From NCBI GenBank assembly GCA_029974275.1, contig JARKSN010000155.1, positions 1-29,254 on the forward strand: a DNA stretch of 29,254 nucleotides. Direction: 5' to 3'. Below, piece after piece: positions 19,593-22,569 of this stretch. The stretch's first letter is position 1; each line of letters opens with the position of its first letter. The DNA comes from Candidatus Hydrogenedentota bacterium. Lineage in GTDB: Bacteria > Hydrogenedentota > Hydrogenedentia > Hydrogenedentales > SLHB01. A program made the position numbers and the translations under genes. Below the pieces are notes generated by a model. It saw only the letters and a list, made by a program, of their open reading frames with translations, had not been told where the DNA came from and did no database searches.

Positions 19593-19678
19593 CTCTACGA
19601 ACTCCGCGTTCTCTGCCCTCTGCGTTGAAAAAGACTAGGACCGAACGCAGAGGCGCAAAGGTCGCAGAGATCGCAGAG
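19593..19678. repeat. Inverted heptamer-array element 1 (CGCAGAG units)
   Basis: Left arm 19593-19626 (revcomp aaCGCAGAG-g-GCAGAG-aa-CGCGGAG-tt-CGTAGAG), 17 nt spacer, right arm 19644-19678 (aaCGCAGAG-g-CGCAAAG-gt-CGCAGAG-at-CGCAGAG). Confidence 0.8.
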
Positions 19679-19701
19679 GAAAACGGCGGACACGTAACAC
19701 T

Positions 19702-21111
19702 ATGAGCAAAGGGTTTCGCACAGAGCACGATTTCCTGGGCGACATGGCCGTGCCGGAAGATGCACTGTACGGCATTCACACCGTGCGGGCGCAGGAAAAC
19801 TTCGGCGTGGCGGGACGGCCCGTGCCGCCGGCGTTGGTGCGCGCGTACGGCATGGTGAAACTAGCGTGCGCGGTGACGAACCAAACGCTCGGCGCGTGGA
19901 GCGACGACAAGGAAAAAGCCGCCGCCATCAACCGCGCGTGCCGCGAAATGGCCGACGGATTGTTGACGGATCACGTGGTCGTCGATTGGCTCCAAGGCGG
20001 CGCAGGCACGAGCACCAATCTGAACGTCAACGAGGTCATCGCCAACCGCGCGCAAGAAATCCTCGGGCTGCCGCACGGCTCCTACGCGCGCGTGTCGGCC
20101 ATCAACGACATCAACCGGCACCAATCCACCAACGACACGTTTCCCACCGCGCTGCGCCTCGCGGCCATCTGGCTCATCAAGGAACTCGAACAGCAACTCG
20201 TGCTGTTGCAAGAAGCGTTTCAAGCCAAGGAAAAAGAATTCGCGCACGTCGTCAAGGTAGGACGCACCCAATTGCAGGATGCCGTTTTGACAACCCTGGG
20301 CCGCGAAATGGGCGCGTATGCCGAAGCGATCAACCGCGACCGCTGGCGCGTGTACAAATGCGAAGAACGCCTGCGCGTCGTCAACCTCGGCGGCACCGCC
20401 ATCGGAACCGGACTCGCCGCGCCGAGGCAATACATCTTCCAAGTCGTCGACACCTTGCGCGGCCTCACCGGCATCGGCTTCGCGCGCGCCGAAAACCTCG
20501 TCGACGCAACCCAAAACGCCGACGTGTTCGTCGAAGTCAGCGGCATCTTGAAAGCCTGCGCCGTGTCGTTGCTAAAAATCTCGACCGACCTGCGGCTGAT
20601 GTCATCGGGACCCGAATCCGGCCTCGGCGAGATACGCTTGCCCGAACGACAGGCGGGTTCGTCGATCATGCCCGGCAAGGTCAACCCCGTGATCCCCGAA
20701 ACCGTCAGTCAGGCGGCCATGCTCGTGATGGGCCACGACGCCGTGATCGCACAGGCCTGCGCGTCGGGCAATCTCGAACTCAACGCGTTCCTGCCGCTCG
20801 TGGCCGGGTGCTTGTTGGAAAGCTGCGAATTCCTCACGCGCGCCTGCGATCGCATGCGGCGATTCTGCGTCGAAGACATCGAAGCCGACGAAGCGCGATG
20901 CCGCGCCCACGTCGAAGCCTCCACCGCCGTCGCCACGGCCCTCATGCCCGCGCTCGGCTACGACCGCGCCGCCATCGTCGCCAAACGCGCCGCCGAAACC
21001 CGCCGCACCGTCCGCGACATCGTCCTCCAAGACGGCCTCCTCGACGAGAAAACCTTCGACGAGCTCATCACCCCCGAAGCCGTATGCCGCCTCGGCATGC
21101 CCAACCCGTAG
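19702..21111 (+). CDS. aspA: Aspartate ammonia-lyase
   Basis: R.EHD.LG, YGIHT.RA.ENF, QGGAGTSTN.N.NEVIANRA, QSTNDTFPT, GRTQLQDA, LGGTAIGTG and the fumarate-lyase signature GSSIMPGKVNP. Confidence 0.9.
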   Translation: MSKGFRTEHDFLGDMAVPEDALYGIHTVRAQENFGVAGRPVPPALVRAYGMVKLACAVTNQTLGAWSDDKEKAAAINRACREMADGLLTDHVVVDWLQGGAGTSTNLNVNEVIANRAQEILGLPHGSYARVSAINDINRHQSTNDTFPTALRLAAIWLIKELEQQLVLLQEAFQAKEKEFAHVVKVGRTQLQDAVLTTLGREMGAYAEAINRDRWRVYKCEERLRVVNLGGTAIGTGLAAPRQYIFQVVDTLRGLTGIGFARAENLVDATQNADVFVEVSGILKACAVSLLKISTDLRLMSSGPESGLGEIRLPERQAGSSIMPGKVNPVIPETVSQAAMLVMGHDAVIAQACASGNLELNAFLPLVAGCLLESCEFLTRACDRMRRFCVEDIEADEARCRAHVEASTAVATALMPALGYDRAAIVAKRAAETRRTVRDIVLQDGLLDEKTFDELITPEAVCRLGMPNP

Positions 21112-21119
21112 GAGAAGCC

Positions 21120-21587
21120 ATGGTCTCGCACAGCCGTCCCGTTCAGACCGTTTTGCAAATGCAGCTTGTTGCCGTCGGCATTGCTCTTGCCCCAATCACC
21201 TACCTGGTTGTCCTGGTCCTCCTTCGCGTGACCGGGACGCTTCCCGCAACCGGTTTTGTCCAACTGCCCGAGGCGACCCAGACGATTCTGAAAGTCGCAT
21301 TGGGCGCCATGGCGCTGCTCACGGCCATCGCGACGCTGCGCATACGCAAACGACTCGAAGCCGCGTTCCTCGCAAAAGCGAACACCATCGCCAGCCGCAC
21401 CCGCATCGTCATCATCACCATGGCCATCTGCGACGCCGCCGCCGTGCTCGGCCTCGTCGTCGGCCTACTCACCGGCGACCTCATCATCGCAGCCGTCGTC
21501 ATGGCCATCGCCATGTCCGCCGCCATCTTTCATTTCCCCACCCGCGCCTGGATTGAACAGGCGGAGGATTTGGCGGCAAAGCAGTAG
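21120..21587 (+). CDS. Hypothetical integral membrane protein (about 4 TM segments)
   Basis: ATG 21120 with AGGAG RBS overlapping the aspA stop; four hydrophobic stretches; ends HFPTR..W; host-like codon usage. Confidence 0.75.
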   Translation: MVSHSRPVQTVLQMQLVAVGIALAPITYLVVLVLLRVTGTLPATGFVQLPEATQTILKVALGAMALLTAIATLRIRKRLEAAFLAKANTIASRTRIVIITMAICDAAAVLGLVVGLLTGDLIIAAVVMAIAMSAAIFHFPTRAWIEQAEDLAAKQ

Positions 21588-21681
21588 AGGGGTCGCTGTG
21601 AAAGTGATAGCGACTACACGCCTGTTTATAGATTGTTCAGTTTGAAGTTCTTGCTCGCGCAATTTCGGGAGGGATATTACG

Positions 21682-22248
21682 ATGGGACGAATCACAGTGA
21701 TCCTCTTTCTGATAGGTCTGATCCTAGAATTCGCCGCATTTCTAGGTGGTCAGACTGCGAATATCCCAATTGTGCTGAAATTGGTCTCGCCGGAATGTGC
21801 ACGTGCCCAATTCGGTATCCAATTGCTTGTCAACAAGAAGATACTTCAGCCAGAAGACCCCGGTTTTTCTGCGGTTTCCAAGATACTTATACAAGCACTA
21901 CAGCCCGGCTATTCTTCGAACAATGGTGGCAAAATATCGGTTGAGAAACTGACATGCGGAGGTCCCGGTATCGGTTTTGGTCCTCAGAGAGCAGGTGAAG
22001 TTCTTCTCGGATCTGTTGTCCTGTCCAACGGTCAGACTATTCCATATGATTTCATGTCGCTTAGACGCCGGGTGGACACGTTACAGAATATCAGTCTTTT
22101 CGCCTATTCACTCGTAGTTTTTCTGGTAGGTGTTATGACCCAATGTTTTGGCTTTTTTGTGGAACACCAGAAAAACAAACGTGCAGGAAAAGCATCAAAA
22201 TTCCATATTGAACAAACAGATACAACAGGTTCTGGGTATAGTTCTTGA
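21682..22248 (+). CDS. Hypothetical membrane protein with N- and C-terminal TM segments, AT-richer than its neighbours
   Basis: GGAGG RBS, 188 aa ORF, hydrophobic ends, many A/T-ending codons unlike flanking genes. Confidence 0.7.
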   Translation: MGRITVILFLIGLILEFAAFLGGQTANIPIVLKLVSPECARAQFGIQLLVNKKILQPEDPGFSAVSKILIQALQPGYSSNNGGKISVEKLTCGGPGIGFGPQRAGEVLLGSVVLSNGQTIPYDFMSLRRRVDTLQNISLFAYSLVVFLVGVMTQCFGFFVEHQKNKRAGKASKFHIEQTDTTGSGYSS

Positions 22249-22375
22249 GTTCTCCTATGCTTTTCAGTCGTCTTTTGTGACGCCGCGTGAAATTTTTCAA
22301 GATCAGAGATAATATGGAATAAGAAGAACTCCCGGCACGTAGAGCAGGTGATAAGGGAGGGAGTCGCGTTTCTTG

Positions 22376-22451
22376 CGTTGTGGATCGTTGTGTCCGTTGT
22401 GGTTTAAATCTGGATGAAGAATAACCACAACGATCACGACGAGTCACGACG
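22376..22451. repeat. Inverted heptamer-array element 2 (CACAACG/CACGACG units)
   Basis: Left arm 22376-22404 (revcomp aacCACAACG-ga-CACAACG-atc-CACAACG), 18 nt spacer, right arm 22423-22451 (aacCACAACG-at-CACGACG-agt-CACGACG). Confidence 0.8.
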
Positions 22452-22479
22452 GAAGAGAGCGATGCAGGTGTGGGCGTCT

Positions 22480-22569
22480 TTCTGTGCGGTTTCTGCGTCT
22501 TTTGTGGCTCTGCGTTAAAAGATGAGTGGCCGTGAACGCAAAGCCGCAGAGCGTGCAGAGATCACAGAG
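22480..22569. repeat. Inverted heptamer-array element 3 (CGCAGAG units)
   Basis: Left arm 22480-22516 (revcomp aaCGCAGAG-c-CACAAAA-ga-CGCAGAA-ac-CGCACAG), 18 nt spacer, right arm 22535-22569 (aaCGCAAAG-c-CGCAGAG-cg-TGCAGAG-at-CACAGAG). Confidence 0.8.

Follow-up and report, generated by a model that had tools for sequence, protein, structure and literature searches.

Paired heptamer-array repeats in a Hydrogenedentota hyd maturation operon as probable gene-less ends of a GxxExxY nuclease cassette

We analysed a 29,254-nucleotide (nt) stretch of DNA from a Candidatus Hydrogenedentota bacterium (GenBank assembly GCA_029974275.1, contig JARKSN010000155.1, positions 1 to 29,254; the window), in which three paired repeat elements, all within 19593..22569, sit in a maturation operon of the order hydG - TM1266-like - aspA - hydF - hydE. 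The elements share one architecture, consisting of an array of heptamers that ends in GTT, a spacer of 17–18 nt, and then AAC followed by the mirror array (Table 1). A preliminary description of the sequence had reported this layout, and it is confirmed. Direct reading of the letters also bears out that elements 1 and 3 have the same unit spacing (8, 9, 9) in their right arms and that element 1 starts 17 nt past the DUF5615 stop codon (19575). We distinguish four arm types, A (elements 1 and 3), B (element 2), C and D. Element 2, as had been noted, uses a different heptamer in similar geometry (CACAACG in the preliminary description, CACRACG for type B), and its arms are 79% complementary. Constancy of the first unit spacing is not evidence, because it is fixed by the ungapped profile used for the searches. 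A profile scan found no further arm scoring above 12 in the window, in line with the earlier claim that such elements occur nowhere else in it. The degenerate half-arm reported downstream of orf188 does match element 3 but stays below the profile threshold; to judge from its letters it is plausibly, though not provably, the relic of an earlier copy. The repetitive extragenic palindrome (REP)-like doublet that follows element 3 is a separate repeat, which we take to be of the GTAG type.

Table 1. Elements, genes and further repeats in the operon region, with window coordinates; L063 is the sister strain.
Feature	Position	Strand	Remarks
DUF433 + DUF5615 toxin–antitoxin-type pair	18956..19575	+	no upstream arm; retained in L063
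Element 1 left arm	19593..19626	-	type A; AAC + 4 CGCRRAG-like units read on the minus strand, ends GTT
Element 1 spacer	19627..19643	.	17 nt; unchanged in L063
Element 1 right arm	19644..19678	+	type A; 19644-19701 has 11 differences in L063
aspA-like lyase gene of the hyd maturation operon	19702..21111	+	
orf155	21120..21587	+	native GC (62%), in both strains; the swapped segment begins within its last codons
Strain-variable segment	21576..22827	.	orf188, elements 2–3 and REPs; L063 has an unrelated 806-bp PIN-type pair, no arms
orf188	21682..22248	+	AT-rich (45% GC); no upstream arm
Decayed half-arm	22269..22292	-	20/24 letters shared with 22496-22519; profile score <11
Element 2 left arm	22371..22404	-	type B, CACRACG units
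Element 2 right arm	22423..22456	+	type B; 18-nt spacer before
Element 3 left arm	22475..22516	-	type A, degenerate
Element 3 right arm	22535..22569	+	type A; 18-nt spacer before
REP-like doublet	22587..22670	.	separate repeat; also at C298 and C307
REP-like palindrome	22722..22753	.	also beside a RAYT gene at C268; decayed copy 22327-22358

The operon around the elements is expanded by extra genes. A toxin–antitoxin (TA)-type pair lies upstream of element 1, and orf188 lies upstream of element 2; orf188 has no known family and atlas scores at lead level only. Between aspA and this variable slot, orf155 encodes a membrane-type protein of no known family that was not found in 20 relative loci. 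The TM1266–aspA junction, where element 1 sits, is short and element-free in 12 of 14 relatives of other genera, the remaining two holding a gene-less type-C pair and an insert of 2.3 kb that yielded no arm, and the aspA–hydF junction is short in 11 of 13. Because the corresponding junctions are mostly short in relatives, the extra genes and the elements are both later arrivals. The type-C pair (L017:2521-2794, genome G031) is face-to-face and reached the site of element 1 independently.

The elements belong to a family dispersed over the genome. The scan for further copies suggested in the preliminary description returned 122 arms with at least two units and 89 with at least three, against 4–8 two-unit matches and none of three or more units in the controls (the reversed genome and three shuffles), and a profile search gave 155 arms of the four types against 4 in the reversed genome. 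As had been claimed, geometry is conserved across copies while linker letters vary. With a home-made gene caller that misses some small genes, 66 of 69 arm clusters lie outside called genes and 48 of 59 between co-directional genes, often filling the gap; presumably only copies between genes survive. Neighbouring genes include SAH hydrolase, sufC/sufB, a RadA-like ATPase and an FGGY kinase, and stand-alone pairs occupy junctions without an extra gene, for example sufC–sufB. At co-directional junctions a type-C arm immediately precedes the downstream gene and points backwards in 28 of 38 cases; the order A> D< C< recurs.

Similar pairs occur far outside this genome. An exact pattern for back-to-back type-A pairs gave at least 122 matches in GTDB, and among the 80 inspected, 48 are true array pairs with spacers of 9–24 nt; we dropped the other 32, in which one arm lacks a second unit (chance or non-array matches). 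Many of the true pairs come from Pyrinomonadaceae and are not independent of one another. The other records are from Nostoc, Bacteroidales, Ignavibacteria, Nitrospiraceae, Verrucomicrobia, Planctomycetota, Deferribacteres and Chlamydiae.

The arms are tied to genes of the GxxExxY nuclease family (PF13366). The genome carries five such genes, four of which lie between inward-facing arms, two of type A (C22 and C163), one of type C and one of type D, while the fifth is cut by a contig end. Elements 1 and 3 are of the arm type that flanks the genes at C22 and C163. An order-wide sample comprised 96 GxxExxY genes, taken from 93 of 97 loci. For 77 of them an array lies no more than 170 nt away, on one side or on both, compared to 11 of 400 control windows (each gene contributes two windows, and 132 of these 192 are positive). 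The two flanks are of the same arm class in 54 of 55 genes. Inward arms on both sides were found at 31 of the 96; other layouts are also common. The preliminary description had mentioned similar repeats next to GxxExxY genes and had supposed an enzyme encoded elsewhere. Such an enzyme is likely. The GxxExxY link is borne out for type A, to which elements 1 and 3 belong; for type B (element 2) no cognate gene was found in the sets searched, which are given below.

Arm class also follows the protein tree. Over 75 GxxExxY proteins (21 were dropped for having no array, short length or a stop), arm class changes 10 times, compared to 39.9 times after shuffling, and the type-A, C and D proteins of this genome fall in different clades, each with same-class proteins of other genera. 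The classes were defined by us, the alignment has 110 columns and kin share labels, so the tree shows clustering and not strict co-evolution. All 80 aligned sequences retain E27, D67, D/E77 and K79, which are residues of catalytic type. A fold model (predicted local distance difference test score 95.4) is nearest to SSO0001, presumably a Cas4 protein, and to lambda exonuclease, both weakly (E 0.007 or weaker); Foldseek returned nothing at E 0.001 or better, and no solved structure was matched by sequence. In genome G003, 42 PF13366 matches, many of them partial, mark a recent expansion with decay.

The layout of the pairs points to how they may have formed. Counted after collapsing tandem copies, back-to-back pairs are of a single type in 20 of 20 cases (15 AA and 5 BB; chance ~0.32 each), compared to 7 of 40 face-to-face pairs. 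At C163 the cassette, that is, the GxxExxY gene with its arms, is followed by an 11-nt spacer and then by a third arm. A stretch made up of the gene's final ~90 bp, the right arm, the spacer and a third arm recurs at C193, a site unrelated to C163 (88% identity over 179 bp), where the third arm matches the 5' arm of the cassette at 38 of 40 letters; this joint (C193:3352) carries the end of the gene and so is not gene-less. The same cassette has lost its middle by internal deletion at C268; it is present at several loci and is decaying there. In three of five relatives with a C163-like layout, the third arm repeats the first arm together with its outer flank. As the simplest reading of these letters, a back-to-back pair would have arisen where the right end of a cassette was linked to the left end of the same cassette, either in a circle or in a head-to-tail repeat.

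Gene-less units have also been copied, as near-identical ones recur at unrelated loci and in tandem. Elements 2 and 3 and the REP-like repeats that follow them form a mosaic recurring at C257, C222, C268 and C193. Gene-less mosaics with shared spacers occur at unrelated loci (C257, C193 and C222; C298 and C334) with 75–83% identity over 160–230 bp. At G000:C193:10250-11200 (L270), four tandem copies of ~243 bp each hold a type-B pair, a type-A pair and a REP-like palindrome, in the same order as window 22371-22753. Type B, with the same anchor and geometry as type A, shares these mosaics with it.

We conclude that the elements are either relics without a gene or travelling ends, and that they belong to a repeat-nuclease system not described before. 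The three elements of the window are probably gene-less, back-to-back ends of GxxExxY cassettes that the nuclease, acting in trans, has spread as selfish intergenic repeats. A mechanism can be sketched from the arrangement of the copies. Each nuclease clade would read its own array and would cut or resect just outside the AAC end; the two ends would then be joined, as a circle or a head-to-tail repeat, into a one-type pair with a short variable spacer, and this joint, with or without the gene, would be placed at new gene junctions by recombination at or near existing arms. More tentatively, and with the odds somewhat against it, the whole may be an undescribed minimal class of mobile element. 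A PD-(D/E)XK nuclease of 125 residues would recognise the phased array specific to its clade, cut beyond it and link the two ends to each other; the pairs in the window would be such joined ends, which would have spread alone across many phyla, sometimes picking up or bracketing TA genes.

Several observations weigh against the reading of the elements as cassette ends spread by the nuclease. GxxExxY genes lie between outward arms in 15 and between same-direction arms in 9 of the 96 order-wide cases, so no single end polarity is fixed. Among the 80 loci matched by the type-A pair pattern in GTDB, none has a GxxExxY gene within 1.5 kb, and the link in trans therefore rests on sequence type. For type B, no cognate gene was found among the 96 order-wide genes, in the 80 viral loci examined of 93 matches (most three-unit matches there are simple coding repeats), in 135 genomes searched with two exact patterns (which matched 3 and 2 genomes, this one included) or in the GxxExxY loci examined in G014; element 2 is therefore assigned only by its geometry and its company. 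The protein has no visible DNA-recognition domain beyond the nuclease core, and array binding is a prediction. Of the five joint loci in relatives, the two not described above show the opposite pattern (L322) or are ambiguous (L061). REP-like repeats stand beside 11 of 18 back-to-back clusters but only 7 of 49 others, and since elements 2 and 3 sit in a mosaic with such repeats, a REP-associated tyrosine transposase (RAYT) could be their mover. Finally, the only strain difference seen removes elements 2 and 3 along with a gene, and neither insertion nor excision of an arm pair alone was observed.

GxxExxY might instead be a homing-type, free-standing nuclease for which the arrays are operators or binding sites, gene-less arrays then being decay scars that are not self-mobile. 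The decay series is directly seen, in the internal deletion at C268 and the gene tail at C193. Face-to-face stacks of mixed type, A> D< C< among them, recur with a constant orientation to transcription, as successive visits would leave them, and the nearest folds, at the weak scores given above, are resecting exonucleases. No target duplication was found: one of 25 inward-arm loci without a third arm shares at least six letters, against 5.7% in the control, in a test that is blind to duplications of 2–3 nt. The near-identical gene-less mosaics at unrelated loci and the four tandem copies at C193 do not fit scars that stay in place, and we regard this explanation as unlikely. Direct repeats, which are partly the arms themselves, enclose 25 of 94 GxxExxY genes. 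At L459 (G014:C40) and L037 (G019:C66) such repeats measure 60–130 bp, and the one at L459 takes in the ribosome-binding region and start codon.

A further possibility is that the elements are RNA hairpins (terminators, stabilisers or processing sites), or passengers of REP mosaics moved by RAYT, with a GxxExxY link that is historical. All three fold well, with z-scores of -4.6, -8.7 and -3.1 for elements 1, 2 and 3 and 0, 0 and 2 equally good shuffles per 200, respectively; the clusters lie mostly between co-directional genes, the genome has RAYT genes, and back-to-back clusters show an enrichment of adjacent REP-like motifs. Yet linker letters are no more alike between partner arms (9 of 32) than between strangers (21%), and linkers that are not partner-specific favour a DNA pattern read by protein over an RNA stem. 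Likewise, in the sister strain L063 (98.5% identity over 5.9 kb to the window) element 1 is retained with an identical spacer, but its right arm and flank differ at 11 places, compared to a divergence of ~1% in the TA-type pair and 2.8% in aspA; no changes in the left arm correspond to these, and predicted folding weakens from -47.8 to -40.1 kcal/mol. These changes may stem from local conversion by another copy or from the edge of a recombined tract. Rfam gave no match to the elements at the gathering score, and the site of element 1 is short and empty in most relatives. We therefore consider this account quite improbable.

The preliminary description had proposed cassette-insertion sites, with back-to-back pairs delivering small genes into operon junctions in the manner of integron attC. 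It is true that an element follows each of the two blocks of extra genes in the window, as it had said, but no arm precedes either cargo in the profile scan (18898-18955 upstream of the TA-type pair, 21588-21681 upstream of orf188). In L063, window 21576-22827 is replaced by 806 bp that encode a PIN-domain protein and a small partner and contain no arms. The breakpoints fall at the flanking genes, orf155 and hydF, and not at the elements, an outcome that the preliminary description had named in advance as speaking against its proposal. Divergence is concentrated in the final 97 bp of orf155 (19%) and in hydF (6%), as expected for replacement through recombination in flanking genes. A replacement of similar size lies at the same place on a contig of run X4, which may be the same strain as L063. 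The sequencing runs listed as carrying the sequence were read as contigs and include no RNA run. An apparent joint of 19666-22589 in a sequencing-run contig was rejected as a repeat artefact, its letters matching the C200 copy. Along window 15704-18055, 2353 bp show no difference from L063, followed by 1–6% divergence through the hyd operon; this identity block is a tract recombined between the strains.

AT-rich genes are not significantly enriched among the neighbours once GxxExxY genes are set aside (5 of 50 versus 67 of 1338, p=0.18; for back-to-back pairs 2 of 11, p=0.11), in what is a small sample. An initial enrichment of low-GC neighbours (14 of 59) was discarded, as eight of the rows are GxxExxY genes and the remainder is not significant. 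Next to true pairs in other phyla, 38 of 89 open reading frames (ORFs) are named metabolic or regulatory genes, and 38 re-scanned of the other 51, some of which are probably spurious, include one TA gene. In this genome, by coordinates, 2 of 11 TA-type loci adjoin arm clusters, the pair in the window and HicB at C257, which is ~106 bp away from its cluster. The leuC–leuD junction of G010 holds MNT-HEPN-MNT between two type-B pairs whose outer flanks are similar. Arm pairs may thus possibly associate with, or capture, TA genes on occasion. The TA-type pair and orf188 are likely ordinary variable genes that recombine via flanking core genes and share tolerant gaps with the elements. Although the HicB and MNT-HEPN-MNT cases and the direct repeats around GxxExxY genes fit cassette insertion, the arm-free swap, the unbracketed cargo and stand-alone pairs such as that at sufC–sufB make it improbable, and a role of the elements as insertion doors for the neighbouring extra genes is not supported here. 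The leuC–leuD locus itself (L347:4730-8470, G010:C12) is a cargo hotspot with a duplicated leuC 3' end and leuD 5' end and several repeat types, and two more MNT-type pairs lie upstream of it.

Among known systems, the elements work most like REPIN/RAYT, REPINs being inverted doublets of REPs. Bertels and Rainey (PMC3116915 and PMC3337134) describe REPIN doublets as intergenic and inverted, of one repeat type; each repeat has an imperfect palindromic core (PMC3337134). Shared features are intergenic one-type inverted doublets that have a poorly conserved spacer, lie in either orientation and could form hairpins. Both systems also include tandem arrays of two types, and in both the repeats flank a small gene for the cognate nuclease. 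However, the arms described here are phased direct heptamer arrays with no inner palindrome, and the flanked gene encodes a PD-(D/E)XK protein of the PF13366/TIGR04256 family and not a tyrosine transposase; in a further difference, the gene itself is found, decaying, at several loci. The RAYT checked at C268 adjoins a different, palindromic repeat.

Insertion sequences can have miniature inverted-repeat transposable elements as derivatives, and those of the IS3, IS21 and IS30 families form joined-end circles. The GxxExxY cassette resembles them in that a single gene is enclosed by inverted ends, derivatives with internal deletions exist, and a short spacer separates the joined ends. It differs in lacking a DDE transposase (its family is PDDEXK_3), in the absence of a detected target duplication, in its size of ~480–550 bp, in spacers of 9–24 nt, and in a gene that also lies between outward or same-direction arms. 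Integron attC sites are imperfect inverted repeats closed by GTT and AAC triplets, and the elements similarly place an imperfect inverted repeat with both triplets after a stop codon. Here, though, the two triplets point towards the spacer, the copies are dispersed, no brackets surround the cargo and most neighbours are core genes; in the window and L063, cargo is neither bounded by arms nor exchanged at them. No tyrosine recombinase was found among the 14 window proteins scanned, and no search aimed at an integron integrase was made.

The cognate genes are members of PDDEXK_3 (PF13366, TIGR04256), which the available part of PMC3424549 lists with function 'Unknown' and multiple transfers, giving neither flanking repeats nor a mobility role. 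No description of the pairing of heptamer arrays with GxxExxY genes was found in the literature outside subscription journals and supplements. For this widespread family of listed unknown function, the match of arm to clade names a candidate substrate, and the joined-end layout predicts where the nuclease would cut. If the reading is right, the arrays would constitute a second REPIN-like system in bacteria, built on another enzyme superfamily and filling operon junctions in many phyla, and GxxExxY would be a very small nuclease with natural specificity variants. Extra genes adjoining such repeats should not be taken for their cargo.

Elsewhere in the window, positions 3707-3960 and 10105-10300 hold two similar short ORF-like stretches of a kind that recurs after genes on either strand, which points to a further intergenic repeat; beyond the C193 array lies a related stretch.

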